The notes beneath the pieces were generated by a model. That model was given only the letters and a program-made list of their open reading frames with translations. It was not told the DNA's origin and did not search any database. From NCBI GenBank assembly GCA_046563655.1, contig CM102286.1, positions 15,494,766 to 15,514,765 of the forward strand: a stretch of DNA of 20,000 nt, written 5' to 3'. Both the position numbers and the translations under genes were made by a program. Below, piece after piece: positions 1,444 to 20,000 of the stretch; the first letter of the stretch is position 1, and every line of letters starts with the position of its first letter. Origin of the DNA: Yuukianura sp. NJ FZ-2021. Taxonomy: Eukaryota.

Positions 1444-2330
1444 TGATTTCATGTAATGCTTTAGCTTTTAAAAGTGACATTAAGCTTGTGACTTGAGAAA
1501 TTAAAACATTTTCCACTTTTCCACACTAATTGAGAACGTTATCCCCTTGAGAAGTCCTGTGTTTAGGTTCATCTCTTGTTTTCATCTTCACAAACAGGAA
1601 AAAATAACATCGATTTACCTATTTTTTTTATATGAATAACGTGCCTACCATTTTTTAATTAATTCAAATTTACAAAACTAGTCTAAATGTAAACAAAAAA
1701 GTGTGAAACTGTAAAAGGAAATGTGGATTTTAGTGAAGCAATACCGACAGTGATGCAATAAGCGTGTGAATTTGTAGACGTGGCTTGTGGTTTTACAAGT
1801 AGCACTGACAAAATATAAAGTTTAGTAATAAGATACTATGTATAACTTTTCTGAACATCCAAAATATCAAAACTCTAAAATGCGTTTTAAACTTTCTTAT
1901 AAGCTATTGTTAAAATCCTTTAAAAATAGTAAAATTACAATAAGTCTTATATTTGAATTGTACTAAAAATAGTACCTACTTTTTAATTGATTTGTGAGTG
2001 TAAGTTGCTAAATATTGGCGGAGTTAAAAGTGTCTTATGTGCGTTCTTGCAATTAGTTTAGGTTAGGTGTTGCACAAAACCTTTGCGGTTTTAAAAGCAC
2101 ACGAAACCGACTTCCTTAAGATTTGACTTTATATCATTGGCTTACCGCAGTTTAATTAAGGTTTACGATTGGCCTAATTTGTAAATTGAGGTATAATGAT
2201 GATTAATGCAAAAGTTAAAAGTTGAGTTAGTATTGAATTCAGTTCTCCACAAAAAGCTTTTACTTTAACATATTTTACTGACCTAGAATTTAACTTAACA
2301 CATTGAAGGTGCGAATTAGTTCATCTAAAG

Positions 2331-3328
2331 ATGAGCATTTACTTGATTTGTCTAGGCGTCATTGCCTTCTGCGTCCTACAAGCAGCAACTTCCCACACTG
2401 CTGCTGATCCTGAGCAACACGCCGTGGTGGAGGGTGAACACCACTCTCCGCACGGTGGTAACGGTCATCACGGTGGTAACGGTCATCACGATGGCAACGG
2501 TCACCACGGCAGCAACGGTCGCCATGGTGGTTACAAACGTGGCCATCATAAAGGCAACCGAGACGGATCGGATGAGGAGCATGACGACGAACATAAAAAA
2601 AAGAAGAGCTGTACATGCCTAGAAACCAAGGAAAGCGACTCTGAAAGCCAAGAAGAGGACAGAGTGAGGAGATTTGTGCTGCGACAGCATGGGCACAGGC
2701 GACGTCCCTTCCAGCTTTACCACCGTCGTCGTCCCCAACACGGACATGAGCACGAACGTCACCATAAGTGCGCATGCCCAGAACCTCGGCTGGAAAAGGA
2801 GCAGGCGGAAGTGAAGAAAGTGGAGAAAGAAGCCAAACTAGACGCTGATTCTTCATCCAGCAGCGAAAGTGACGACAGTTCGAGTTCATCCGAAAGCAGT
2901 AGCGACGAAAGCGGGAATTCCAAGAACAAGTGTTCTGGCAGCGACAGTGACGAAAGCAGTAGCAGCGAGGAGGGTGACAAAAGCATTGAATCAAAAGCCC
3001 ACAAGAAAGGTGACGCTGAACACGAGAAAAAAGCTGACGCTGAAGCTGAGGAAAAAGCTTGCACCGTTGCAGAGAAAAACGCTGATGCTGATGCTCAGAA
3101 AAAAGGTGACACTGAAACTGAGAAAAAGGAGACGCTGAAGCTGAGAAAATAGCTGACGCTGAAAAAGCTCCTGAGGCTGAAGCTGACAAGGAACCTGCTG
3201 AAGGAGCAGTCGGAGCTCCGCCAGCACATGCCGATGCTGCTCCACCACATGCAGATGCTGTTCCACTACATGCCGAACCTGCTCCAGTAGCCAAGGAAGT
3301 TGTCACTACTGATGTGAAAGAGGTTTAA
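2331..3328 (+). CDS. Secreted His/Gly-rich, Ser-rich, Lys/Glu/Ala-rich low-complexity protein (~332 aa if one A is restored in the run at 3123-3127)
   Basis: Hydrophobic N-terminus MSIYLICLGVIAFCVLQAATS (signal-peptide-like), GGNGHH repeats, poly-Ser tracts, EKKADAEA repeats. The repeat pattern continues in the shifted frame (GDAEAEKIADAEKAPEAEADKEP...VVTTDVKEV*) to TAA at 3326-3328. Confidence 0.75.
2451..2531 (+). repeat. 18-bp coding tandem repeat (HGGNGH) x ~4.5
   Basis: cacggtggtaacggtcat twice, then cacgatggcaacggtcac, cacggcagcaacggtcgc, catggtggt. Confidence 0.9.
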
Positions 3329-4193
3329 ATTAACATTAAAAAAAATTTTCACAAATTACCACTGATATTTTGTGCGTGTATTGAATTTTATTGGATTGAA
3401 TTAATTGAAAATACTGAACATGATACGGTCAAAATTGTAGATTTTCTATGCGAAACTTCAAATTCTATTGATCAATTAAACTGTTTTCTAAAAACTATGC
3501 TGGAAAAGGGAAAACTATCTTCAAATTCCCACAAATTTAATGTTTATACGTTACTTTCTCATACCCTTACACTTGTTTTGAATCATCACGTTAGGTTTGA
3601 CCAAGGCTCCTGGTTGACCCTTATGGCTGCTGTTTGACCTCATGTCTAACTGCGTCCTCGCTTCTTGGCTTGACGTCGACGTGGCCGTCAGTGGGCTTCT
3701 CCTTCTTGACTTTCTTGATTTGTCTGTCCCTGGCAAAGTTGCGTTTAACCCTCTTCTTACGGCTGAATTCAGCCACAGTACTGCCAGCATCTTCAAAGGC
3801 ATCTCTGGCCTTGCGCTTCCCCTCCTCACTCCTGGATCTTTCTGTTCCCAATTTAAAATACCGATTCCAGAACTTGTCGTCAAACGGGTACATCCAGAAT
3901 CCGATTCTGCAATGTTGATCAAATGTTTGTTGTGGATGTTTGTGTGAATTTTTGTTATTTAACGGAATTTTGACCGGTTTCTTGCCGAACCATTCCAGGG
4001 TCATATTCTTGAGCCCTGTCAAATGCTCAATGCCATATTCCCGTCTCTGCAGAATGTCATCATCGATGGTCAACTCTGCCCATATGGGAAGTTCAATTAA
4101 TTTGTCACGAATGAATTCCTCAAAAACGTCTTGGTTTTGAGCGTTTTTTAATTCCAGGAGTTTAGTGAGACTGTAGTCGTCTTCGATTAGTGG

Positions 4194-4537
4194 CAAAGAA
4201 AAAAGCATCCTAGTTGAAGCGACAAAGGGTAAGAAACACTGTTAATGAAAACTTTCTCTTCCCCCCTCTCCCTCCCCGCGATTTGGAGGAATGGAATTTG
4301 AGTTCTTGGGTGGTCGCTGGTATAGCTTAGGCGTAATGTGGAGTGATTTTGCTTCCCGCCGTCACCTGATATATGGTGATATACGGAGGCCGATTCTGAC
4401 GCTTCGATTGGCTGTTGAGGCCGATTCTGACAGCCTGATTGGTTCTATATCTAAACCTACTTATAAAAACTCTATTACGCGGGAGTACATTACCTTGTCC
4501 CTTCAACCTGCGTAGCAGGCCGATGCTTTCTTCTTTG
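4194..4537. mobile_element. 344-bp non-autonomous TIR DNA transposon with 9-bp TSD (Mutator-like by TSD length)
   Basis: TSD GATTAGTGG at 4185-4193 and 4538-4546. 16-bp TIRs CAAAGAAAAAAGCATC / GATGCTTTCTTCTTTG (15/16). Subterminal inverted match gttgaagcgacaaagggtaa / ttaccttgtcccttcaac. Empty sites in paralogs near 11218 and 14516. Confidence 0.88.
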
Positions 4538-6010
4538 GATTAGTGGAAGGTATCGTTGAGAAAACAGCATCTACCAGCATCCCTTTGAAGTCAAACGCGG
4601 TTTTCAAGTGTAGTGCTTCCAGGGGAGAATTGGCCATGCCATCAAAAAAGTATCGAAGACATTTCGCAGTTGGGTACTTCATGGTGAGTCGTTTCAAGGC
4701 GGGAAACATTTACGAATGTTAAGCATAAAGAATTGGTCTTTAATGAAATCAGTTTGACGGAGGTCACGAACGAACTTGAATTTGTGAAATTCGGAGTTAA
4801 AGGCTTAGGGCGACGTTGGGATTTGCATTGTCACTGTCCAGTTGCTGCGAATATGAAGAGTCGTTAACTTCGGGAACATGGATCGCTGGATCCTGTCGAT
4901 ATGAATTGAGGTTCCGAGAAACAAAGTTTTCACAGTTGGAATTGGAGAAAATGAAATTTCTATTTCAGTCGTTCCTATTTTGTCCAAGGAAATGACCTGG
5001 CCATCTTGTACATTTTGTATACCATGTCCCCCGGCTGAGTTGTCGTCGCTGTAACTACCGCTGTCGTATTCATAGTCGTCAGATTCGACGAATCCTTCAG
5101 TTTCTTAGACTTCATACACGCTTCCATTTCCTATGTGAAAACTCCTCAGTTGTGCCATCTTCGGGACATAAAATTTGACTTGGTTGTAGGCCATGTCCAC
5201 TCCTTTCCAGTTTCCGGAAATCGTGAAGTGTCGGAGAGTTGAAGCAAATTTTGACAAGTGCGATGTCAGACACATTGCCTTCACCTCCTCCCATATCCCG
5301 CAGTTTAATTTTAAACTTGCTAATGCTGCAAGATGCAAATGGGCAATTGACTGGATTTGTTTCCGATGCAGTGCAAGTTCTTCTTCGTCGTCATCATCGT
5401 TCGACTCGATTTTCTGAATACTCAAAAGTTTCAGATTTTACAATTTCGGAGAAGAATTGATTCCATTGAGGAGCTGGTCGACTTCTTGGCGACTTGAATA
5501 AATGTAGACCAAATGATTCACCGTTTTCGGCAGGCTAGCCAACAAGCAACTGAGGTTTGTTGCTTTCTTTAGAAAATTATTGGTTCCGTTAAGCACAACT
5601 TTCACAAGCTTCGTACGTGCAGGGAAAGTGAATTTTGAGCTAGCGTTCTCCTCCGCTTCCTCTTCTTGGTCACGTGACTCTGGAATCACTAAGACCTCCA
5701 ATTCCTTCAGGCGGGTCGCAATCTCCTTCAAGATTTGCCAGTTGCTTGCTTCTACGTTGATTGTCTTGATTTTTTGTCGATTAGCACCGCAGCTTATAAA
5801 TCGGGGCAGGTGAATCGGTCTCGATCCAGGAAAACGAACTTTAGTGACCTTGGAGCCAAGTTTTCGGTTACGATTTCCGTTGAAAAACGAAGTAAGGCTG
5901 CGAATGACTTTGACCGAGCCCTTCTGTTCCGCTTTCGCTTTTTCCTTTCGTTCACCGTCTTCGTCATCACTATCCTGTAAGTAACAGAACATTTCATTTT
6001 CCACAATCAG

Positions 6011-6106
6011 CTGACCTAACCTAACCTAACCTAACCTGTCAAATACAAGCGTTGTATTGCATTAGTTTTTCCTACCTTACGCATATATTGTACATATTGA
6101 TATTAC
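6011..6106 (-). other. Spliceosomal intron of the LRR-like family (conserved position in copies B, C, D, F, G)
   Basis: Donor GAG|GTAAT(A/G), branch-like CTAAT, acceptor CAG|CTGATTGTG. 73 nt in copy F (12723-12795), 119 nt in copy G (16356-16474). Splicing keeps the frame. Confidence 0.8.
6015..6037 (-). repeat. Interstitial telomere-like tract (CCTAA)4CCT
   Basis: Replaces 'gg' of cagctg-gg-tcac seen at the same site in copies F, G and H. Confidence 0.9.
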
Positions 6107-6361
6107 CTCAGGCGAAATTGTTTTCGTTATAGAGCTGCGGGTGAAACGTCGCGGTCCAGTGTGTACCGAGGTGCGGGAATCCTGCTGCGATGGACCCTGG
6201 TCACGGCCGGGTTCATCAGCATCGCCAGACAAGTCTACAGCTTCTACAACGGTTTCCGGTTTTTGTTCCTGCTCCAGTAGTACAACGTCGTCGTCATCGC
6301 TGGTATCTGCTTGGCGAACGTTGTCAGTATACGAAGACGTCCCCGCTGCCGGTCGTGCCAT

Positions 6362-6685
6362 TGTGCTGAATGCTGATGGAACGGAAGCTCTAGTAACAGG
6401 AAGTCGGTGTTCCAACAAAAACAAACAAAAGCGGCATGGTAGAAAATGCAAAGCAAAGGCAATTGCAATAATCTGGGGTTACAAAATTTCATGAGTCGGA
6501 GGGCCAATTGCCATTTCATGTTTCATATTGTCAATTTTTATCCCCATTAACTGTTCAAGTTTTGCATTTCTCGAATGGCATAGTTTTCTACTTTATACAC
6601 GTCGTAACTTGCAGGGTCAGGAACTTACGACATTGTGACTGACGTTTCAAGTTTATGACTGGCGTTTTATTAACGCTTTATGACT
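6362..6685 (-). promoter_or_regulatory. Conserved 5' flank (5'UTR/promoter) of the LRR-like family
   Basis: Alignable upstream of the ATG in copies D (10178-10350), F (13062-13258), G (16736-17040) and H (19373-19526, resuming at 19984), e.g. gagtcggagggccaattgccatttcatgtt. Regulatory role is inferred from position only. Confidence 0.5.
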
Positions 6686-7297
6686 TTTTTATTTTAACTA
6701 AAAAGGAATTTTGAGTTTTTGAAAAAAGGGAAAAAGTAGTGTAATAAGATCAAGAATAAACACGAATACAGGACTACGAGAAATCGTTCTCGATCAATGA
6801 AATTCAGAGTACTTTAAGTGTGCCAATTAACCAATTGATTACTTTTAATGAAAACTTAATTCAATTTTGTGCTTCCCGTGCAAATATTGTACTTACAATG
6901 AAACTAATTGATTGAATTTAATTGAAAATTGAACATGTCAAGGTCAACATTGCCAATTTATTCGAACCTCCAAATCCTATCGACCAATTAAACTTTTTCT
7001 AAAAACTAAGGTCGAAACTATGTTCACATTAAGACAACTTTAAAATTTTACGATTACGGTAGTATTCTTTCCAGTTGGCCAGAGAAGTTGCATACAGCAT
7101 CTTTAGGTGCATCCACTTCAGGGTGAAACTCAGCACAAAGTTTACAACCAAAAACATCTAAAAAGTCTAAATTTTTCTAAATCGGATCTAAAATTTCAAA
7201 CTACAGAATAAATTTTAAGGCCATTTTCTATGTTCATACGAATGCAGGTTACTTTGTCATAGCCTAACAGTTTTGCGAAATCACGTTAGGTTTGACC

Positions 7298-8358
7298 CTA
7301 AGAAGACTCCTGTGTGACCTCTGCCTTCACCTCGTGTTTAACTTCTTCCTTGATGATTCTGGGCTTGATGTCAGTGGGCTCGTCCTTCACTTCCTTGATT
7401 AGCCTGTCCCTGGCAAAGCCACCTTTGACTTTCTTCTTCCTCTTCTTACTGTTGGACCCAGCAAAACTACTGCCAACATCTACAAATCCAAAATCCCAAG
7501 TACCCTCATCATCACTCGATATTACGTAAGCTGCTCCGCGGTTTTCGTTGTTGATCCCGTATTGCCCGGTATATGTACACGTCTTTTACCACTTGGGATC
7601 ACAAGGAAGCTAGTCAGGCTAGTCAGCAAGCAACTGAGGTTTGTTGCGTTGTTCAGAAAGTTATTGGTTCCGTTTCGCACAACTTTTACAAGCTTCTTCC
7701 GTGCAGGGAAAGTCAATTTTAAGCTAGACTAACCGAACCATCTCCTTCGCTTCATCCTTTTGATCACGTGACTCTGGAATCACCAGAACCTCCCATTTCT
7801 TCAGCCGGGTTGCAGTCTCCTTTAAGATTTGCCAGTTGATTGCTTCTACGTTGATTGTCTTGATTTTTTGTCGGTTAGCATCGCAGAATCTAATACATCG
7901 GGGTAGGTTGATCGGTCTCCATCCAGGAAAATTAACTGTAGTAACGTTGGAGCCAAGTTTTCGCTTACGATTCCCGTTGAAAAACGAACTGAGGCTGTAA
8001 ATGACTTTGACTGAGCCCTTCTGTTCCGCTTTTTCTTTACTTGCATCGTCTTTGTCATCACTATCCTGTAAATAATAGCACATTTACTTTTCCACAATCA
8101 GCTGGTTAGGTCACATACAAGCGTTATATTGCATTAGTTTTTCCCACTTTACGTATACATTGTACACATTGACATTACCTCATGCGAGATCGTTTACGGT
8201 ATATAACTTTAGGTGAAACGTCGCGGTCCATTCTGTACTGCGGTTCGCGAATCCTGCTGTGATGGACTCTGGTCACTAACCGGTTCATCAGCATCGTCGG
8301 ACAAGTCTACAGCTTCTACAGCAGTTTCCGGTTTTTGTTCTTGCTTCAGTATTACAAC
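7298..8358 (-). pseudogene. LRR-like family copy C (start lost; large internal deletion at ~7607 fusing to a divergent C-terminal tail)
   Basis: Partial exon 1, intron and exon-2 start, then a jump from NLSCLLTSL to a tail reading ...KKRKKKVKGGFARDRLIKEVKDEPTDIKPRIIKEEVKHEVKAEVTQESS* (TAG at 7298-7300). Confidence 0.8.
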
Positions 8359-9015
8359 CAGGAGCGGTAACTAGAAAGAGTGGTTGCAAATCTGCTAGAG
8401 CAAATTTGCTTGCTACTCTCGTCTGCGACTTTGACAATTTGGTACTTACAAAACACTTTCTCTCGGTAGCAAAGTTGAGGCACTTTTCTCTAAAATAAGA
8501 AAAAATAAGAAAAAATGTGACAAGAGGAGGAGTTGAGTCTCTTCACTCCTCACAAAAGCTAAAATCTCGAAGTCACAACAAGGGTGAGACTTCTTGGCAC
8601 AATGTTTGGAACAATAAGTGCATATGATAATATGCACTTATACACGTACGATATGGTTATCATGCTGTTACGAACAGTTACGAAGCTGTTACATTTGTTA
8701 ATTGACTTAGTTTTCCTTATACTTAGATTGTTATTGTTAATAATCGTTCAAGTAGCAAGTTTGCTGCTAGTTCCGACTAGCTGCAAAGATATCACGGAAG
8801 TTGCTATGCTAGTGAGAGGAAGAGCTCTTTATAGGTACCGATTGTCCTGCTAGGAAAAAGGATTCAATGGAGAAAGAGAAGGAGGATCGCTAGAGTTGCT
8901 ATCCTCTTGCGATCCTACTTGCTCCCGGTTTCTTGAATACCAAACGTCGCAAAATTTGAATTTGCGACGCGGGAAGGACTTGCGACCGGTCGCAAGTCTT
9001 TATAGTTACTGCTCC
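8359..9015. mobile_element. ~657-bp non-autonomous TIR element (family uncertain)
   Basis: Starts exactly where copy C homology breaks (attacaac|caggagc). GGAGCGGTAACTAGAAAGA (8361-8379) matches the reverse complement of 8997-9015 at 17/19. Hairpins at 8945-8969 and 8977-8998. No right-hand TSD. Confidence 0.6.
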
Positions 9016-9194
9016 AGGGCTGTTATTTTAGGCGCCAAAATTCACTTTGGTGCGCAATTCAGGCAATACTGGTAAAAATGACCCGTTTTTTACGAAAAAT
9101 GCCACGAATGTAATGTATCCTTATGGGAAACGTACTGCGCAGATGGCAGCAACACTGCCAAATTCTGATCAACGTTCATTCATTCCGATATCTT

Positions 9195-10177
9195 AGATTT
9201 CTCAAACTCGAAGAAGAATTGATTCCATTGCGTAGCTAATCAAGTTCTTGAAGACTTGAGTAAGTGTAGACCAAATGGCCCAGCGTTTTCGGCAGGCTCG
9301 CCAGGAAGCAACTGAGGTTTGTGGTGTTCTTCAGAAAATTATTGTTTCCATTAAGCACAACTTTCACAAGTTTGGTACGTGCAGGGAAATTGAATTTTAA
9401 GCTAGCGTTCTCCTCCGCTTCATCGTTTTGGTCACGTGACTCTGGAATCACAAACACTTCCAATTTCCTCAGCCGGGTGGCAATCTCTTCAAGGTTTGAA
9501 AGTTGATTGCTTCTACGTTGATTGTCTTGATTTTGTTTCGATTAGTATCAGAAGCGAATAAATCGGAACAGGTTAATCGGTCTCCATGCAGTGAGGGGCT
9601 AATACACTCCTTCGAGATTTGAAAAAGTGTAGAACAAATGTTCCAGAGTTTTTGGGAGGCTAGCCAGTACGCAACCGAGGTTTGTTGCGTTCTTAAGGTT
9701 AGGCTGTGAACGACGTAAGGCTGTGAATGACTTTGACTGAGCCTTCTGGTCCGCTTTCGTTTTTTCTTTCCTTGCACCACCATCGTCATCAATATCCTGT
9801 AAATAAATTAAAACATTTCATTTGCCACAATCAGCTGGGCCACAATGAGTCACATACAAGCGTTGTATTATATTAGTTTTTCCTACTACCTTGTGCATTA
9901 TATTGTACACATTGATATTACCTCAGGCGTAATTTTTTTCGGTATATAGCTTCGGGTCAAATGTCGCGGTTCAATTTGTACCGAGGTTGGCGAATCCTGC
10001 TGCGATGGACCCTGGTCAGGTTAGAGTTCATCGTCTGACAAGTCTACACTCTAAAGCTTCCACAAAATTCTCTGATTTTCGTTCCTGCCTCAGTATTATA
10101 ACGTCGTCGTCATCGTTGGTATCTCCTTGACGAACGATGTCAGTATCCCAAGACGTTCCTGCTGCCGCTCGTGACAT
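9195..10177 (-). pseudogene. LRR-like family copy D (5' part; internally rearranged; 3' truncated)
   Basis: ATG at 10177 (MSRAAAGTSW), intron, exon 2 to ...SSLQELD*. Foreign paralog patch at ~9600-9695. Confidence 0.8.
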
Positions 10178-10429
10178 TGTGCTGAATGCTGATGGAAGCT
10201 CTACGAAGTCGGTGTTCAAACAAAAACAGCGGCATAGTAAAAGTACAACATACAAAACAATGGCAATTGTAATAAACCGAGATTACAAAATTACATGAAT
10301 TGGAGGTCCAATTAACATGTCATGTTTCATTCTCCAAATTTTCGTCGCCAGGCCTAACCCCTAACCTAACCTATTTTGTTCAAGGAAACCATCATCTTGA
10401 ACGTTTTCGTCACCATTAATACGGTTACT

Positions 10430-10908
10430 CTCTTTTTGGGTTGAGTTGTCGCTGTCACTATTGCTGTCGTTTTCATAGTCGTTTTCATAGTCGTCTGACT
10501 CGATGAATGTTTTAGTTTAGTGGACTTCATCCACACCTCCATTTCCCATGGTAAAAGTCTTCAATTGAGCAGTCTTCGCTTCGTGTAACTAGAGCGGGTT
10601 GTCGGTCTTGTCCACTCCTTGCAAGTTTCCGGCAATCGTTAAGTGTCGCTGAGTTGGTGCGAATTTTGACAACAGTAGCGTTAGATCCAAAGCCTTTCAC
10701 ATCATCCCATATCCTGCAAAGTAATTCTAAACTTGCTAATGCTGAAAGATTCAAATGGGCAATCGATAGAATTTTTTTTGCGATGCAGAGCAAGTTCTTC
10801 TTCATCATCTCATCATCCTCGTTCGACTCGATTTTCTGAATAGTCAAGAGTTTCAGATTTTTCAAATTCGGAGAAGAATTGATTCCATTGAGGAGCTGAT
10901 CGACTTCT
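10430..10908 (-). pseudogene. Segment E: extra copy of the central exon-2 region fused to the 3' end of copy F
   Basis: ORF 10527..11045 reads ...HCRIGFWRYP (near the C-terminus) directly into EVDQLLNGINSSPNLKNL (central region). Confidence 0.8.
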
Positions 10909-13061
10909 GGGTACCGCCAAAATCCGATTCTGCAATGTGGATGAAATGTTTGCAGTGGATGTTTATGTAAAATTTTGTTATTCGACGGAATTTTGGCCGG
11001 TTTCTCGCGGAGATATTCCAGACTCACATTCTTGAGCATTCTCACGTGCTCAATGCCATACTCCCGTCTGTGCAGAATGTCATCATATCATATCATCGAT
11101 GGTCGGCTCTGCCCAAATGGCAAGTTCAATTAATTTGTCACGAATGAATTCCTCAAAAACGTATTGGTTTTCAGCGTTTTTTAGCTCCAGGAGTTTAGTA
11201 AGACTGTAGTCGTCTCCGATTGGTCGAAGGTATCGTTCAGGAAACAGAGCATCTTCCTGCATCCCTCTGAAGTCAAATGCAGTTTTCAAGTGTAGTGTTT
11301 CCAGGGAAGAATTGGCCATGCCATGGAAAAAATATCGAAGACATTTTGCAGTTGGGTACTTCATGATGAGTCGTTTCAAGGCCTGAAACATTTACGAATG
11401 TTAAGCATAAAGAATTGCTCTTGAATGAAATCAGGAAGCCGGAGGTCACGAACAAACTTGAATTCGTGCAGGTTGGAGTTAAATGTTTCTGGAGAAATTA
11501 AAAATTGCATTGTAACTGTCCAGTTGCTGCGAAAATGAAGTGTCTTTAACTTCGGCAACATCGATGGCTGGATTCTGTCGATATGAATCGAGGTTCCGAG
11601 AGAAACTTTTCAGAGTTGGAATTGCAGAAAATGAAATTTCTATTTGAGTCGTTACTATTTTGTCCAAGGAAATGACCTGGTCATCTTGTCCATTTTGTTC
11701 ACCATATTCCAAACCTCTCCCGGTTGAGTCGTCGCTGTCACTACCACTGTCCTCTTCATAGTCGTCTGATCTTTCAGTTTCAGTTTCTTGAACTTAATAC
11801 TCATACACCCATCCCATTTCCCATGTTAAAAGTCCTCAACTGAGCCATTTTCGGAACATGAAATTTGACTTGGTTGTCGGCCATATCCACTCCTTGCCAG
11901 TTTCCGGCAATCGTGAAGTGTCGAAGAGTTGGAGCGAATTTTGACAACAGCAATGTCAGACACATTGCCTTCACATCCTCCCACATGCCGCACTTTAATT
12001 CTAAACTTTCTAATCCTGAAACATTAAAATTGGCAATCAACAGAATTTGTTTTCGATGCAGTGCAAGTTCTGCGTCGTCTTCATCATCATCCTCGTCCAA
12101 CTCGATTTTCTGAATAGTCAAGATTTTCAGATTTTTCAAATTAGAAGAAAAATTGATTCCATTGAGGAGCTGACCTACTTCTTGGAGAGTTGAATAAATG
12201 TAAACCAAATGGTCAGCGTTTTCGGCAGGTTAGCCAGCAAACAACTGAGGTTTGTTGCGTTCTTTAGAAAATTATTGGTTCCCTTAAGCACAACTTTCAC
12301 AAGCTTCGTACGTGCAGGGAAAGTGAATTTTGAGCTAGCGTTCTCCTCCGCTTCATCGTTTTGGTCGCGTGACTCTGGAATCACCAACATTTCCAATTCC
12401 TTCAACCTGGTGGCTATCTCCTTCAAGATTTCGAAGTTGATTGCTTCTACGTTGAATGTTTTGATTTTTTTTCGATTAGCATCGCAGAAGCTAATAAATC
12501 GCGGCGGGTGAATCGGTCTAGATCCAGGAAAATGAACTCAGGAAAATGAACTTCACTGACCTTAGAGCCAAGTTTTCGGTTACGATTTCCGTTGAAAAAA
12601 AAAGTACGGCCGTAAATGACTTTGATTGAGCCCTTCTTCTCCGCTTTCGCTTTTGCTTTGCCTGCACCGTCTTCGTCATCAATATCCTGTAAATAATAGA
12701 ACATTTCTTTTTTCACAATCAGCTGGGTCACATACAAGCGTTATATTGCATTAGTTTTTCCCACTTTACGCATACGTTTTACCCATTGACATTACCTCAA
12801 CCGAGATCTTTTTCGGTATAGAACTTCGGGTGAAACCCGAATTCGGGCGGTCCATTCTCTACTGCGGTTCGCGAATCCATCCTGCTGTGATGGACTCTGC
12901 TCACGACCGGCTTCATCTCCATCGTCGGACAAGTCTACACCTTCTACAGCAGTTTCCGGTTGATGTTCTTGCTTCAATATTACGACGTCGTCCTCATCGC
13001 TGGTATCTGCTTCGCGATCGTTGTCAGTATTCGAAGACGTTCCTGCTGTCGGTCTTGACAT
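10909..13061 (-). pseudogene. LRR-like family copy F (nearly full length, multiple frameshifts, C-tail missing)
   Basis: ATG at 13061 (MSRPTAGTSS), intron 12723-12795, chain of ORF fragments 12447..12737, 12175..12426, 11801..12208, 11376..11561, 11083..11391. Confidence 0.85.
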
Positions 13062-13539
13062 TTGTGTTGAATGCTGATGGCAGCACTAAGAACAGGATGT
13101 CGGTGTTCAAACAAAAAAAAACAAAAGCGACATCGTAGATAATACAAAGCAGAAAATACAATTGTATTGCAATAATCTGGGGTTACAAAATTGCATGAGC
13201 CGGAGGGCCAATTGCCATTTCATGTTTCATTTTTCTCAATTTTTATCGCCATTCTAACTTAGGGCTAACCTAACCCAACGATTCCTTGTCACAACACGGT
13301 ATTTTTTTTAAATGTAAAATTTTTTCACATTTTTTGCCATTTCCAATGCAACTTTCGAAATTTTTTTCCCAAGAGCTTCTGCCGCCTCTGACTTACATCA
13401 AAATGTTGCCATGTACGGTGAGATTACGTTTTGCTGAATTTTCTTGGGGCGTTCATGTGAAATTTAAAATCCTGCTGAGGAGTTGAAGTTGGACTGCATG
13501 AATTTTTTGAATTTGACATTGTGAAATGCACGGACAGGT

Positions 13540-13633
13540 CCCGACGCTGAAGCCGACAAGGAACGTGCTGAATGAAACAACATTCGAAGTTCCGCCAGCA
13601 CATGCTGCGCCAGTAGCCAAGGAAGTTGTCACC
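13540..13633 (+). pseudogene. Relic of the 3' end of the His-rich secreted protein gene
   Basis: gacgctgaagccgacaaggaacgtgctgaa...ccgccagcacatgc...ccagtagccaaggaagttgtcac matches 3172-3306. The downstream 13700-13940 matches 3355-3620. Confidence 0.8.
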
Positions 13634-13939
13634 TGCAAATGTCAAAAGCTTAAACTTAAAACAAATTCCCTGAAATCAAAACTAAAATTTTGCGCTTACC
13701 ATCACACTAATTGATTGAATTTAATTGAAAATACTGAACATGTCCAAGGTCAACATTGCCAATTTCCTATTCAAAACTCCAAATTCTATTGAGCAATTAA
13801 TCTTCTTCGAAAAATTACACTGGAAAAGGGAAAACTACGTTTAAATTCCCCAAAATTAAATCTCCATACGTTACTTTGTCACACCCAGCATTTGTTTTGA
13901 ATAATCACGTTAGGTTTGACCAAGGCTCCTTTTTTACCC

Positions 13940-16735
13940 TTATGGCTCCTGTTTGACATCCCTCTTCACCTCATGTCTAACTTTGCCCTCGATTCTTCGC
14001 TTGACGTGGAACTCAAGCGGGCTCCTCCGTCTTGACTTTCTTGATTTATCTGTCCCTGGCAAAGTTGCGTTTTACCCTCTTCTTACTGTTGGATTCAGCC
14101 ACAGTACTGCCAGCATCTTCAAAGGCATCTCCGGCCTTGCGCTTCCCCTCCTTACTCCTGGATCCTATTGTTTCCAATTTAAAATACCGATCCAACAACT
14201 TGTCGTCAAACTTGTACTTCCAGAATCCGATTCTGCAATGTTGATCAAATGTTTGCTATGGATGTTTATGTGAAACTTTATTTAACGGAATTTTGGCCGG
14301 TTTCTTGTTTAGATTTTCCAGACTCATCATCTTGAGCCCTCTCAAGTGCACAATGCCATACTCCCGTCCGTGCAGAATGTCATGATCGATGATCAACTCT
14401 GCCGTCTGCCCAAATGGCAACTTCAATTACTTTGTCACGAATGAATTCCTCTAAAACGTCTTGGTTTTGAGCGTTTTTTAGTTCCAGGAGTTTAATGAGA
14501 CTGTACTCGTCTCCGATAAGTGGAAGGTAACGTTGAGGAAACAGATCATCTTCGAGCATCCCTCCGAAGTCAAATGCTGTTTTCAAGTGTAGTGTTTCCA
14601 GGAAAGAATTGGCCATGCCATGAAAAAAGTATCGGACAATTTTTCAGTTGGGTACTTCATGGTGATTCGTATCAAGGCGGGAAACATTTTACGAATGTTA
14701 AGCATAAAGAATTGGTCTTGAACACTGGTGCTAATAGAGTGAGCGCCGCTCGAGCGGCGCTCATCATCTGCTGCAAAAAATATTACCGCTCCGCTCCCGC
14801 CCGCTCCCTCGTCCGCATCGCTCCCGCTCCGCTCAGAGCGGTCATAAAACTTTAACGACCGACTGCTCCCGCTCTCTCATGTGTTAACATAGGAGCGGGC
14901 GGAGCGAAGAGCGCCGCTCTTCACCAATTTTTGGCTTCGCTGCGCTCCCGCCCGCTCTTTCGGAAAATTTTTGTGGACCGCTCCGCTCCGCTCTCCGAGC
15001 GAAGAGCGGAGCGGTCACCGCTCTTCTAAAGAGCGATCGCTCTCAAAAGAGCGGCGCTCTCTCAATTAGCACCAGTGGTCTTGAATGAAATCAGGAAGCC
15101 GGAGGTCACGAACGAACTTGAATTCGTGTAATTCGGAGTTATATGCTTCCGGAAAAGTTGGGATTTGAATTGTCACGGTCCAGTTACTGCGAATATGAAG
15201 CGTCTTCAACTTTGGAAACATGGATGGTTGGATTCTGTCGATACGAATTGAGTTTCCGAGAGACAAACGTTTCAGAGTTGGAATTGTAGCGAATGAAATT
15301 TCTATGTCAGTCGTTCCTGCTTTATGCAGAGAAATGACCTGGTAATCTTGTCCATTTTGTGCACCGTCGTCGTCGTCGCTGTCACTACCGCTGTCGTTTT
15401 CATAGTCGATGTATGTTTCAGTTTCAGTTTCTTGGACTTCATTCACACTTCCATTTCCCATGTTAAAAGTCCTCAATTGGGCCATCTTAGGGACATGAAA
15501 TTTGACTTTGTTGTCGGCCAAGTCCTCTCCTTGCCCGTTTCCGGCAATCGTGAAGTGTCGCAGAGTTGGAGCAAATTTTGACAACAGGAATGTCAGATCC
15601 ATGGCCTTCACATCCTCCCAAATCCCGCAGTTTAATTCTAAACTTGCTAATGCTGAAAGACTCAAATCCACAATCGACAGAACTTGTTTACGATGCAGTG
15701 CAAGTTCTTCTTTGTCGTCTTCATCCTTCGACTCGATCTTAGGATTAGGTTAGGTATCCTGAATAGTCAAGAGTTTTAGATTTTTCAAATTCGGAAAAGA
15801 ATTGATTCCATTGAGCAGCTGATCGACTTCTTGAAGGCTTGAGTAAGTGTACACCAAATGGTTGAGCGTTTTCGGCAGGTTGGCCAGCAAGCAACTGAGG
15901 TTTGTGGTGTTCTTCAGAAAATTATTGTTTCCATTAAGCACAACTTTCACAAGCTTCATACCTTCAGCGAAAGTCAATTTTGAGCAAGAGTTCTCCTCCG
16001 TTTCATCGTTTTGGTCACGTGACTCTGGAATCACCAACACTTTTAACTCCTTCAGCCGGGTCGCAATCTCCTTCAAGATTTGGAATTTGATTGCTTCTAC
16101 GCTGATTGTCTTGATTTTTTGTCGATTATTATCGCAGAAGCGAATAAATCGGGACAAGTTAATCGGTCTCGATCCAGGAAAATGAACTGCAGTAGTAACC
16201 TTGGAGCCAAGTTTTCGGTTACGATTCCCGTTGAAAAACGAACTAAGGCTGTAACTGACTTTGACTGAGCCCTTCTGTTCCGCTTTTTCTTTACTTGCAC
16301 CGTCTTCGTCATCACCATCCTGTAAATAATAGAACATTTAATTTTCCACAATCAGCTGGGTCACATACAAGCGTTGTTATTGCATTAGTTTCTCCTTCCT
16401 TAGTAATATGTACTAGGTACAATGTATGCGTAACGGATCCTTACGCATACACCGTACCTACATATTGCCATTACCTCAGGCGAAATTGTTTTCGGTATAG
16501 AGCTTCGGGTGAAACGTCGCGGTACAATTTGTATCGGGGTGGGCGAATCCCGCAGCGGTGGACCCTGGTCACGGCCGGGTTCATCACCATCAGTATCGTC
16601 GGACAAGTCTACAGCTTCTACAGCAGTTTCCGGTATTTGTTGCTGCTTCAGTATTACAACGTCGCCGTTATCGCTGTTATCTGCTTGGCGAACGTTGTGA
16701 GTATTCCAAGACGTTCCTGCTGCCGGTCGTGACAT
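13940..16735 (-). pseudogene. LRR-like family copy G, full length (exon 1 16735-16475, intron 16474-16356)
   Basis: ATG at 16735; nonsense GAA>TAA just after the acceptor; 18-nt TTAGG-containing insertion at 15741-15758 carrying a stop; MITE at 14723-15077; ends DVKQEP* at 13940. Confidence 0.85.
14723..15077. mobile_element. 355-bp hAT-type MITE, complete
   Basis: 8-bp TSD GTCTTGAA (14715-14722, 15078-15085). 29-bp TIRs CACTGGTGCTAATAGAGTGAGCGCCGCTC (27/29), CA...TG termini. Empty sites in copies A, B and F. Confidence 0.95.
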
Positions 16736-18019
16736 TGGGCTGAATGCTGGCTGATGGAAGTTCTAAGGAGTCGGTGTTCAAACAAAAACAAACAAAACCG
16801 GCATGGTACACGTACAAACTACAATGGCAATTGCAACAAACCAACCGGGATACATGAGTCGGAGGGCCAATTGCCATTTCATGTTACATTTTGTCAATTT
16901 TTATCCCCATTGTAACTGTTCAAGTTTTGCATTTCTCAATTGCATGGTTTTGTGTTTTGTACACGCCGTAAGTTGCAGGGTCGGCAAAATGATTGTGACT
17001 GACGTTTCATGTTTATGACTGGCGTTTTATTAACGTTTTTTTATAAAGCGACCCTTTGTCACAACACGGCATTTTCTTGAAATGCAAGAATTTTTGGTTA
17101 GATTATCGTTTCAGGGGCAGTGAAAAATTTTTTTTGTCAAAATTTTCGAAATTTTTTTTCCTAGATTTTTTCACTTCTTATCATGTTTTACACGTTTTTC
17201 GAACGTTTAGAGCAAAAAATTTTTTTTAAACCAAGGGTCCCCCCTTCCCATTTTTGTGAGAATCGGGACTCGAAGATTTCCAAAGTACAAAAACTGAAGT
17301 GGTCACCCCTGACAACCTCAAAAATGACCCTTACAAAAGTTGTTCGGAATCTTAAAAAGGAATAAGACATGGCAACGGTGGGTCTCGTTTTGCCTCAAGT
17401 TAATTAATTTTCAGGCTTAATAAGTCGTCACAATAATGACCTAGAAATTTGTACAATACCTCTAGAAATTCCTTGATATTCGCAGAATAACTATTAGGGC
17501 TCAGAATTTGACTGTTAGCAGCTAAATGATACTAAAAATCCGATACAAAGGTTCAATTTTGTATAAGTATTGTATGACACAATAAATTTGGAAATTGGCC
17601 CCTAACTATTATGCGCCATGGTCTTCCGGATTTTTAGACACCTTAAACGCAATTTTTAGGTCTTATAGCAAAAAAAATTTTCAGACAAAACAGATGTAAT
17701 TCTGACATTATTCAATAATTTGCAAATATCGGCACCAAAATCAACCGTCTGCATCGGCACAAGGTTGTTGTTGAGTCCCAGGTTGTTTCAATTCATGTCC
17801 TGCGAAAAACTTTGGTTTGTCAATCATTGGAAACAGTGCCGACTTCTGCAAGTTTAAGCCGTGATTTTGCTTTGTTGCTAATGACAATGGCTGACACCAA
17901 ATCGTAAACAAACGCTGCCTCTTACCCGTCCTTACGTGGAGTATTTTTTGTCCTATGGACTATGACCCTACGATCACTCGTTGAGGTCAGAGGTCAAGTC
18001 AAACATTTCCCCTAACCTA

Positions 18020-19372
18020 AGCGAATGAAATTTCTATGTCAGTCGTTCCTATTTTGTCCAAGGGAATGACATGGTTATATTGTCCATTTTGTTCAACATG
18101 TCCCAAACGTCCTCCGGTTGAGTCGTCGTCGCTGTCACTACCGCTGTCATCTTCATAGTCGTCTGATTCGACGAATCCTTCAGTTTCTTGGACTTCATTC
18201 ACGCTTCCAATTCTCATGTTAAAAGTCCTCAATTGAGCCATCTTCGGGACATGAAATTTGACTTGGTTGTCGGCCATGTCCACTCCTTGCCAGTTTCCGG
18301 CAATCGTGAAGTGTCGGAGAGTTGGGGCGAATTTTGGCAAGAGAGTATTCAGCTCCATAGCCTTCACGTCGTCCCATATCCCGCAGTTTAATTTTAAACT
18401 TGCTAATGCTGAAAGATTCAAATGGGCAATCGACAGAACTTGTTTACGATGCAGTTCAAGTTCTTCTTTGTCGTCCTCGTCGTTCGACTCGATCTTCTGA
18501 ATACTCAAGACTTTTAGATTTTTTCAAATTCGGAAAAGAATTGATTCCATTGAGGAGTTGACCTACTTCTTGGAGAGTTGAATAGGTGTAAACCAAATGG
18601 TCAGCGTTTTCGGCAGGTTAGCCAGCAAGCAACTGAGGTTTGTTGAGTTCTTTAGAAAATTATTGGTTCCGTTAAGCACAACTTTCACAAGCTTCGTACG
18701 TGCAGGGAAAGTGAATTTTAAGCTAGCGTTCTTCTCCGCTTCATCGTTTTTGCCACGTTAGTCTGCAATCAAAAACACTTCCAATTTCTTCAGCCGGGTC
18801 GCAATCTCCTTAAGATTTGCCAGTTGATTGCTTCTACGTTGATTGTCTTGATTTTTTGTCATTCAGCATCGCAGAAGCTAATAAATCGGGGCAGGTTGAT
18901 CGGTCTCCATCCAGGAAAATGAACAGTAGTAACGTTGGAGCCAAGTTTTGGCTTACGATTCCCTTTAAACAACGAACGTAAGCTGGAAATGACTTTGACG
19001 GAGTGCTTCTGTTCCGCTTTCGCTTTTTCTTTGCTTGCACCGTCTTGCACTTCGTAATCTATCACTATCCTGTAAATAATAGAACATTTCATTTCCCAGA
19101 ATCAGCTGGGTCACATACAAGCGTTATATTGCATTAGTTTTTCCTACTTTATGCATACATTGCGGTCCAGTTTGTACCGATGTCCGCGAATCCTGCTGTG
19201 ATGGACCCTGCTCACGGTCGGGTTCATCAGCATCGTCGGACAAGTCTACGTCTTCCATAACAGTTTCCGGTTTTCGTTCCTGCTTCACTATTAGAAAGTC
19301 GTCGTCATCGCTGGTATCTCCTTGGTGGACGTTGTCAGCACTCCAAGACGTTCCTGCTGCCGGTCGTGACAT
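18020..19372 (-). pseudogene. LRR-like family copy H (splice donor deleted near 19161; frameshifts; 3' truncated at a CCTAA tract)
   Basis: ATG at 19372 (MSRPAAGTSW); ORFs 18859..19092 and 18017..18508. Homology ends at EISFA, abutting (CCTAA)2 at 18011-18020. Confidence 0.85.
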
Positions 19373-19526
19373 TGTGCTGAGCTGATGAAAGCTCCACTGG
19401 GAAGTCGGTGTTCAAACAAAAACAGACAACGTCAGCATGGTACAAAAGATAAAGCAATGGCAATTGCAATAAACCGTGGTTACAAAATTACACGAGTCGG
19501 AGGCGCAGTTGTCATTTCATGTTTCA

Positions 19527-19983
19527 TCATACTCTAATTGACGATGCGACCGACCGACCGGCCAATGCTAATAGCATGGCCATGCAAACTATATGTGCAA
19601 AAAACTCTCTGTGTGGAAGAGTGGAACGATCCTGGGGTGTCCCTTTTACATTACTTCTCCAAGCACAGACTTTCAAAAATTCCATCTCAACTCAATCAAA
19701 AAACAAAAGAAAGGGGGGGGGGGTCTGGGGGGGATTACCCCCCCAGCCTCGACAATACATTTTCGATTCAACTAGACGGAACCCGTGATGCTTACGCATC
19801 ACCAAATAACTTGAAGCACTAGGTCATACTCGGGTCAAACGAAAAAGCTAGTGGATTTTTGACATGAAGGAAGGATGATTTGGAACATTTTGTCAAAAAT
19901 CCGCTAGCTTTTTCGTTTGACCCGAGTATGACCTAGTGCTTCAAGTTATTTGGTGATGCGTAAGCATCACGGGTTCCGTCTAG
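19527..19983 (+). mobile_element. Non-autonomous Helitron, 457 bp including a nested element
   Basis: A|TC start and CTAG|T end with no TSD. Hairpin GTGATGC-GTAA-GCATCAC (19953-19970) lies 9 nt before CTAG. Removing it restores catgtttcA|TTTTgtcaatttttatc, the empty site seen in copy G (16888/16889). Confidence 0.9.
19772..19878 (-). mobile_element. Nested 107-bp mini-Helitron in opposite orientation
   Basis: The minus strand reads A|TCATCC...same hairpin...CTAG|T. Its last 93 bp match the host 3' end with 1 mismatch. Confidence 0.7.
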
Positions 19984-20000
19984 TTTTGTCAATTTTTATC

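Follow-up and report, generated by a model that had tools for sequence, protein, structure and literature searches.

Short telomere-repeat tracts at copy-specific insertions and rearrangement junctions of a tandem gene array in Yuukianura sp.

Results

A 20-kb window of the Yuukianura sp. NJ FZ-2021 genome (GCA_046563655.1, contig CM102286.1, positions 15,494,766 to 15,514,765), which is the whole stretch of DNA analysed here, carries a tandem array of a putative leucine-rich-repeat gene in which short tracts of TTAGG (CCTAA on the other strand) occur. This pentamer, the ancestral telomere repeat of arthropods, is presumed to be the animal's own. The tracts are copy-specific, enriched over chance, and sit at insertion, deletion and truncation junctions. 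We think it probable that they record telomere units added to the 3′ ends of double-strand breaks ahead of end joining, with telomerase, priming on a register of 1–4 nt, as the most likely enzyme. Self-BLAST and multiple alignment resolve the array into eight minus-strand copies, A to H, with a unit of ~3.4 kb, pairwise identity of 80–90% and a star-like tree; B and G are full-length and the other six (A, C, D, E, F and H) are fragments (Table 1). As the array decays, the sister copies supply built-in empty sites, making it a natural record of break repair.

An initial annotation of the window listed nine telomere-like strings and described them as filler at copy-specific mutation junctions. 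All nine are there, none more than 2 nt from its stated place, and absence from sister copies is firm for seven (B, C, D at 9695, D/E, F, G and H) and weak for 10018–10024 and 7729–7739. The sites are not each unique to one copy, as had been supposed, since D and F share a homologous site, B and C share one, and C 8276 and D 10018 share another. The figure of eight to nine independent events is thus an over-count, with two sites of chance length and events at shared sites that may not be independent. To the original list we add a seventh long tract (2053–2068) and GGTTAG at 17096–17101.

The enrichment was assessed by counting perfect TTAGG-register runs across the window and comparing them with 200 Markov simulations. 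Runs of at least 10 nt number six against 0.04 expected, with 11 against 1.46 at a threshold of at least 8 nt and 16 against 6.0 at a threshold of at least 7 nt. At the shortest lengths the counts are at background (runs of at least 6 nt, 30 against 24.9; exact 7-mers, five against about 4.5), so that 10018–10024 and 7729–7739 are unsupported by length alone. Near-matches to the telomere 10-mer (12 against 0.64 expected) and to the 15-mer with up to three mismatches (10 against 0.29) are also in excess, and a looser search of the window for degenerate tracts returned no extra loci. TTAGG alone among 102 pentamer-repeat classes has six independent sites of at least 10 nt, or two or more perfect units; the remaining common classes are single paralog-conserved sites seen repeatedly, or lie inside a GC-rich miniature inverted-repeat transposable element (MITE). 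The 16 runs of at least 7 nt comprise nine that are copy-specific, at eight loci, two without a paralog (1563 and 2058), and five that are common to paralogs (GTTAGGTT at 3590, 7285 and 13909; AGGTTAG at 12227 and 18615) and therefore represent ancestral sequence rather than insertions. The check suggested with the initial annotation, of TTAGG against shuffled fillers and other pentamers, thus came out in its favour for this window, with TTAGG over-represented at copy-specific insertions and junctions.

The alignment yields 22 insertions of at least 4 nt that are private to one copy, a set from which two transposon insertions were left out and to which the C and D insertions at a shared intron site were added. 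Telomere runs of at least 8 nt occur in four of the 22, where random insertions of the same length between the same flanks would give 0.053, and a count of four was reached in 0 of 5000 randomisations. The carriers are B 6014–6037, C 8106–8109, G 15741–15758 and the complex event D 9592–9708, which contains the telomere-register sequence AGGTTAGG. The B tract, scored by Tandem Repeats Finder as 4.8 copies at 100%, lies at the intron site CAGCTGG^GTCAC, where one G has been replaced; at C 8106–8109 the upstream GG and downstream GT are both in register, and F, G and H are empty at each of these two insertions. In D, the ectopic patch derives from a paralogous internal gene segment (9606–9694 matches 12177–12264, 18565–18652 and 5481–5569 at ~80% by BLAST) and is closed by AAGGTTAGG (9695–9703), followed by a short local duplication. 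The G insertion is preceded by native TT in register and has an extra ATC beside the tract, and A, B, E, F and H are all empty there.

The G insertion interrupts the coding sequence, its sense strand reading Q D T stop P N P K with the TAA at 15750–15752, and the adjoining open reading frames (ORFs; 15066–15749 and 15750–16337) share one frame. The 5-nt period of the repeat and the 3-nt codon have no common factor, so 15 nt of TTAGG/CCTAA places TAG or TAA in every frame. If the proposed process is real, it would by this arithmetic of ours be an obligate nonsense mutagen, which the G insertion illustrates, as a potential rather than as demonstrated gene killing here. To call it a significant gene-killing mutagen, as the initial annotation did, overstates the case: no insertion other than that in G can be shown to introduce a stop into a reading frame, and G, B and the other copies are damaged elsewhere too, by stops, frameshifts or transposon insertions. 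A candidate in-frame stop at D 10018 was dropped because D is already frameshifted further upstream.

Telomere-like sequence was also sought within clusters of private substitutions. Among 205 copy-specific 6-mer windows, telomere-register 6-mers occur in six, at three loci, against 0.5 windows expected, which is suggestive only and gives modest support to 10018–10024 and 7729–7739. The insertion at C 7728–7737 is weakly identified as a degenerate telomere-like filler, its longest perfect run being 6 nt.

Table 1. Array copies, telomere-repeat tracts and associated features of the 20-kb window. Junctions in the last column run along the G-strand (native end / added units / following sequence) and are given with the number of native nucleotides in register.
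Feature	Position	Strand	Description	Junction; native nt in register
Copy A	1–1444	−	Runs off window start; MITE at 1–230 (self-BLAST, alignment)	
TTAGT-TTAGG-TTAGG-T	2053–2068	+	~250 nt upstream of unrelated plus-strand gene; no paralog for comparison	
Copy B	3279–6679 (3′ part 3279–4193, body 4538–6679)	−	Pseudogene, in-frame stops; 353-bp repeat insertion 4185–4537	
B insertion	6014–6037	−	24 nt, perfect telomeric, in intron; G-strand on minus strand	..TTTGAC / AGGTTAGGTTAGGTTAGGTTAGGT / CAGCTG; 0
Copy C	~6880–8358	−	Fragment with large internal deletion	
C insertion ACTAACCGAA	7728–7737	−	10 nt, copy-specific; minus strand GG / TTCGGTTAGT	
C insertion TTAG	8106–8109	+	4 nt, creates GGTTAGGT (8104–8111); same intron site as B, opposite orientation	..CAGCTGG / TTAG / GTCACA; 2
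C CTAACC	8276–8281	−	Four clustered private substitutions at exon-1 GGCCGG site; weak, background length	
Copy D	9195–10350	−	Fragment, frameshifted	
D complex repair event	9595–9703	+	~75 nt native replaced by ~100-nt ectopic patch 9595–9694	
D insertion GCCACAATGA	9839–9848	+	10 nt, non-telomeric; near copy of 10 nt found 8 nt upstream	
D AGGTTAG	10018–10024	+	GGCCGG site, clustered private substitutions and 6-nt deletion; weak, background length	
D/E filler	10351–10373	−	Between 5′ flank of D and truncated E; plus strand CCA / GG / CCTAACCCCTAACCTAA / CCTA	E end: ..ACAAAATAGG / TTAGGTTAGGGGTTAGG; 4
Fragment E	10374–10908	−	Internal gene segment	
Copy F	10909–13259	−	3′ part truncated	
F filler	13260–13285		Head-to-head, at ~125-bp deletion in 5′ flank of F	F left end: ..CTAACT / TAGGG; 1
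Copy G	13605–17095	−	Pseudogene; MITE 14713–15075; 45-nt inverted duplication 16412–16456	
G insertion AGGATTAGGTTAGGTATC	15741–15758	+	18 nt, in-frame, coding sequence; 11-nt telomere run	..CGATCTT / AGGATTAGGTTAGGT + ATC / CTGAAT; 2
High-copy repeat block	17096–18010		~915 bp between G flank and truncated H; opens with GGTTAG 17096–17101	
H filler CCTAACCTAA	18011–18020	−	Truncated 3′ end of H; following minus-strand sequence GGAAATG..	H end: ..CATTCGCT / TAGGTTAGG; 1
Copy H	18021–19527	−	Truncated inside coding region	

Junction anatomy

Telomeric filler also occupies three rearrangement junctions, namely the D/E boundary, a deletion in the flank of F and the truncation of H, and intact copies read through both the E and the H break points. 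At D/E, the final CCTA (TAGG on the minus strand) is native E sequence found in all intact copies, and the order CCA/GG/CCTAACC forms a miniature head-to-head arrangement. The F filler is head-to-head on a larger scale: native ..TAACT is followed by TAGGG, then by CTAACCTAACCC and AACGATTCC, after which a G-like flank resumes at 13286 (13286–13324 matches 17056–17095). Such an arrangement, a G-run and then a C-run, is what extension of the two 3′ ends of a single break, followed by their joining, would be expected to give.

Junctions were read by eye in the G-strand direction, and their number is small. Five of the six readable ends have at least one native nucleotide in register with the added units and three of the six have at least two, where chance would give 25% and 6%, respectively; the binomial probability for five of six is about 0.005, or about 0.03 with two further zero or ambiguous ends included. 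The end on the G flank has 0 nt in register. The junctions also show changes of the end-joining type, including the ~125-bp deletion in F, the loss of 1 nt in B, the added ATC in G, the patch and local duplication in D, and the truncations of E and H. The three junction tracts (D/E, F and H) are all C-rich on the plus strand, and among the small insertions (B, C, G and D 9695) one is C-rich and three are G-rich on that strand. No target-site duplications flank the tracts in the window, as the initial annotation had stated; its companion claim that transposon termini are lacking is qualified by the H tract, which directly adjoins a high-copy repeat.

These features suggest a sequence of events. 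Telomerase would prime on broken ends that already finish in 1–4 nt of the repeat; one or both 3′ ends would be extended and then rejoined, with extension of both giving the head-to-head arrangement of F and, minimally, of D. Other DNA may sometimes be captured, such as the paralog-derived patch in D and the 915-bp repeat block that separates G from H. The outcome would be a set of short interstitial telomeric sequences. We infer a break origin, telomerase as the enzyme, and a germline setting. In the telomerase-assisted repair that was originally proposed, the telomere filler with its vertebrate-type signatures holds up, and the enzyme is the inferred part, with copying by another polymerase as its rival.

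Recurrent sites and other insertions

Several positions in the array have been altered more than once. The intron site CAGCTGG^GTCAC carries a C-strand tract in B, the G-strand TTAG in C and a non-telomeric insertion in D; the flank site following ..ATCGCCA carries fillers in D and F, and the homology of H stops within 25 nt of it; and the exon-1 GGCCGG site has CTAACC in C and AGGTTAG in D. These three alignment positions are possible break hot spots, apparently mutated independently in different copies. The GG/GT microhomology at the intron site may have promoted telomeric capture there, an idea that leaves the non-telomeric event in D unaccounted for. No hairpins or inverted repeats were found at the three sites, and the conserved sequences flanking the intron site had 0 matches in metagenomes. 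Excision of an ancestral transposon from the shared intron site was considered and finds no support, since B, C and D form no clade, the tree is star-like and there is no footprint-like palindrome.

Other insertions are near or inverted copies of adjacent sequence: GCCACAATGA in D, CCCGAATTCGGG (12839–12845) and ACAATTGT (13156–13163) in F, and the 45-nt duplication at 16412–16456 in G. Insertions copied from adjacent sequence are a pattern commonly ascribed to polymerase-theta-type end joining.

Gene array, mobile elements and read support

The encoded protein has an acidic N-terminus followed by leucine-rich repeats. A Pfam search with seven ORFs returned only an LRR_4 match, below threshold, and the only relative retrieved from 5.8 billion proteins is P0001, a distant homologue that is 36% identical and carries LRR_4. 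Judged on these sequence comparisons, the family is a lineage-specific leucine-rich-repeat gene in a decaying tandem array. The array copies are pseudogenes, with stops and transposon insertions in B and G and a frameshift in D; A is the only copy that keeps a long ORF (455–1525, 356 aa). Fragment E abuts the 3′ part of F at 10908/10909 without filler. The product of an unrelated plus-strand gene (2307–3300) begins like a signal peptide and continues with repeats that are histidine/glycine-rich and acidic/serine-rich; ahead of copy G lie 70 nt left over from the 3′ end of this gene (13536–13605), so it formerly belonged to the duplicated unit. L001, the metagenome contig on which P0001 is encoded, has one 20-nt TTAGG-type tract, TTAGGTTAGGTCAGGTTAGG, at 70–89 in 7.67 kb; its three overlapping matches were reached in 3 of 200 shuffles, and we treat it as an anecdote that is not counted as support.

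Several mobile elements have entered the array. A GC-rich, CCGCT-rich MITE of ~355 bp, whose inverted ends begin CACTGGTGCTAAT, is found in G, where it has an 8-bp duplication (GTCTTGAA), and in A; the two copies are 92.6% identical and lie at different positions of their hosts, so one family entered two paralogs independently. The 353-bp insertion specific to B is flanked by a 9-bp direct repeat (GATTAGTGG) and has raised read depth, and a contig of run X2 that joins 4184 to 4538 without it shows that an empty allele or paralog exists. At 19770–19985, 216 bp that match their own reverse complement at 91% fall in a bin of very high read depth and are probably a high-copy foldback element. The block beside the H tract is likewise repetitive: the word depth of 17343–18009 is about 13–27 times that of the next bin, 18010–18676 (2155, 11986 and 6553 against 144, 458 and 510 in runs X1, X2 and X3, respectively), and contigs in 17343–18009 have many joints to other copies of the family. 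This block has no terminal inverted repeats beyond a telomere-like hexamer and no ORF of at least 80 aa, and no poly(A) was seen beside tracts in the flanks inspected.

Read support was examined as contigs from the three runs, which come from one sample in one study. Contigs cross the tracts at 2058, 9696, 10353 and 13260 with 0 differences; contigs of all three runs cross 2053–2068 and 10351–10373 without differences, and X1 contigs cross the D patch (9505–9901) and the F deletion (12741–13791) with 0 differences. The tracts at 2058, 6014, 10353, 13260 and 15741 lie in DNA of ordinary read depth. No allele lacking a tract appears in the contigs of this one sample, and a lack of indels at the tracts in them is not evidence of fixation. 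A contig of X2 joins 10898 back to 9602, from the end of E to the start of the D patch (back 1297), which hints at an alternative arrangement or an extra paralog elsewhere.

Discussion

Weight of the evidence

Several observations weigh against telomere-unit addition as the general explanation. The evidence comes from one 20-kb window of one sample. The remaining 18 of the 22 private insertions lack a telomere run; most of them are tandem duplications, snap-back insertions of a small palindromic kind, or events that fit no class. Telomeric filler is also missing at A 1444, B 6679, C 7615, C 8358, D 9195, E/F 10908 and H 19527, seven ends or junctions in all; on these counts the initial claim of a routine part of germline end joining went beyond what the window can bear. 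Units at the start of several tracts are irregular (TTAGG-A-TTAGG, TTA-A-GG, TTGGG and TTAGG-GG-TTAGG). The longest tract, in B, has 0 nt in register, and the F right, D 9695 and C 7728 ends are ambiguous. Random breaks do not predict mutation of three alignment positions (6014/8106/9839, 8276/10018 and 10351/13260/19527) in two or three copies each, and the snap-back or templated insertions (D 9839–9848, G 16412–16456 and F 12839–12845) show that a second templated-synthesis pathway is active here. Among the contigs listed, none crosses the B, G or H tract, and since the assembly was probably built from these runs, the read support is not independent.

The same templated insertions, at the same locus, speak for an account in which a telomeric template, at chromosome ends or extrachromosomal, was copied in trans by polymerase-theta-type microhomology end joining rather than by telomerase. 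Microhomology annealing would likewise yield nucleotides in register, and many of the fillers are just 4–11 nt, in keeping with the snap-back GCCACAATGA in D, the 45-nt inverted duplication in G and the palindromic insertions in F. This account needs a telomeric template to be used far more often than any other sequence, whereas the non-telomeric fillers were copied from a few nucleotides away and once from a paralog; the perfect 24-nt tract in B and the two-end extension in F are a better match to processive repeat addition. We therefore consider it unlikely. The uniform C-rich orientation of D/E, F and H, where the long tract sits on the right-hand piece and just 0–6 nt on the left-hand piece, would fit a present or former subtelomere in which terminal truncations were healed with telomere and later extended by end capture. 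Three tracts of one orientation are a 1 in 4 chance, however, and the small insertions in collinear copies (B, C, G and D 9695) are of mixed orientation with both sides intact, which terminal healing would not yield. Subtelomeric block boundaries should give tracts of a single orientation; the junction tracts are uniform and the small insertions divide 1 to 3, and we judge this origin to be distinctly unlikely.

The H tract raises the question of whether the tracts are tails, termini or targets of mobile elements, such as TRAS/SART non-long-terminal-repeat retrotransposons, endonuclease-deficient Penelope-like elements or a MITE with telomere-like ends. It adjoins the ~915-bp block, whose other edge is the inverse GGTTAG, so that an inverted telomere-like hexamer bounds the block, and for this one tract a transposon origin is plausible. 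As an account of all the tracts it is highly improbable: there is no poly(A) beside them in the flanks inspected, no ORF of at least 80 aa in 17096–18010 and no inverted repeat beyond 6 nt, the flanks have no common sequence, depth is ordinary at five tracts, and the sister copies are clean empty sites to which repeat units alone were added. No TRAS/SART-type element body with a poly(A) junction within TTAGG was found, no reverse-transcriptase profile search having been made. Chance, or microsatellite slippage from telomere-like seeds, is suited to the shortest sites, as 6–7-nt runs are at background, 10018–10024, 8276–8281 and the core of 7729–7739 may each be chance, and five 7–8-nt runs are conserved paralogous sequence. 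It does not explain six runs of at least 10 nt against 0.04 expected, a count of telomeric insertions that randomised insertions never match, or empty sites without the two-unit seed that slippage needs. It is refuted for the six long tracts, applies to the 6–7-nt sites only, and as an explanation of the whole set is scarcely tenable.

We accordingly return to addition of telomere units at broken ends as the probable explanation. A broader proposal, that end joining in a springtail-like germline often includes such addition, by orders of magnitude more than in mammals, is one that we offer tentatively and think rather doubtful. If it were true, roughly 1/5 of insertions of at least 4 nt and about 1/3 of rearrangement junctions in neutral DNA would carry telomere units, and were the whole genome to show the density of this window, many of the lineage's insertions would stem from telomerase or from telomere-templated synthesis. 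Recurrent break sites would be its targets, and captured DNA could be sealed in as well. Bdelloid rotifers may owe their telomere-repeat scars to the same process, which could help to explain how foreign or ectopic DNA is stitched into the chromosomes of these gene-transfer-rich soil animals.

Comparison with known systems

Sequence-level documentation of interstitial telomeric repeats inserted during break repair is mainly from vertebrates, where they are rare. Short interstitial telomeric sequences are attributed in a review to telomerase acting during alternative end joining (PMC9693754). Mammalian surveys report 79–250 loci per genome that have at least four units (PMC2246262, PMC7215372), with at least one native nucleotide in register at about 75–80% of them and at least two at about 50% (Table 4 of PMC2246262), and the horse insertions are accompanied by deletions, extra nucleotides, duplications, complex events and head-to-head stretches (PMC7215372). 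The tracts described here resemble the primate, rodent and horse sequences in being internal, in having homologous empty sites and in their in-register native nucleotides (5 of 6 ends) (PMC2246262, PMC7215372), and a deletion, extra nucleotides, a duplication, a complex event and a head-to-head tract all occur in this one window, as they do in horse (PMC7215372). On sequence grounds they thus appear to be largely of the vertebrate break-repair kind, now in an arthropod, and the initial annotation was right in kind. They differ from the mammalian loci in their unit, the arthropod pentamer, in their empty sites, which are paralogs in one array rather than orthologs, and in having several sites struck repeatedly in different copies. 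The mammalian surveys apply a threshold of four units (PMC2246262, PMC7215372), and our tracts are much shorter, at 4–24 nt, with two at most reaching it. Their local density is far higher, at seven loci in 20 kb, one or two of which pass that threshold, against 79–250 per genome.

Some mammalian loci, termed TERC-ITS, consist of telomeric repeats flanked by retro-transcribed telomerase RNA (PMC2246262, PMC8537989). Non-native nucleotides likewise lie beside some of our tracts (ATC in G, AACGATTCC in F and CC in D/E); they have no common sequence. Nearer in setting, bdelloid rotifer subtelomeres contain short telomeric-repeat stretches (PMC2861651), which, as here, lie between rearranged, repetitive or fragmented genes. 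Bdelloids are another lineage with another repeat, and most tracts in our window are of a single orientation, several of them simple insertions in collinear copies. Searches of open-access text turned up no sequence-level account of TTAGG insertion at break repair in an arthropod with TTAGG telomeres, and the insect reports among their results are cytogenetic. In aphids, de novo telomere synthesis at chromosome breaks is supported by cytogenetic evidence and gives stable new ends (PMC4296714). The present case would share with aphids an arthropod TTAGG telomerase system acting on broken ends in a germline or clonal lineage, and differs from the aphid ends, as that source presents them, in that the ends appear to have been rejoined, with a few units left internally as the trace of the repair.

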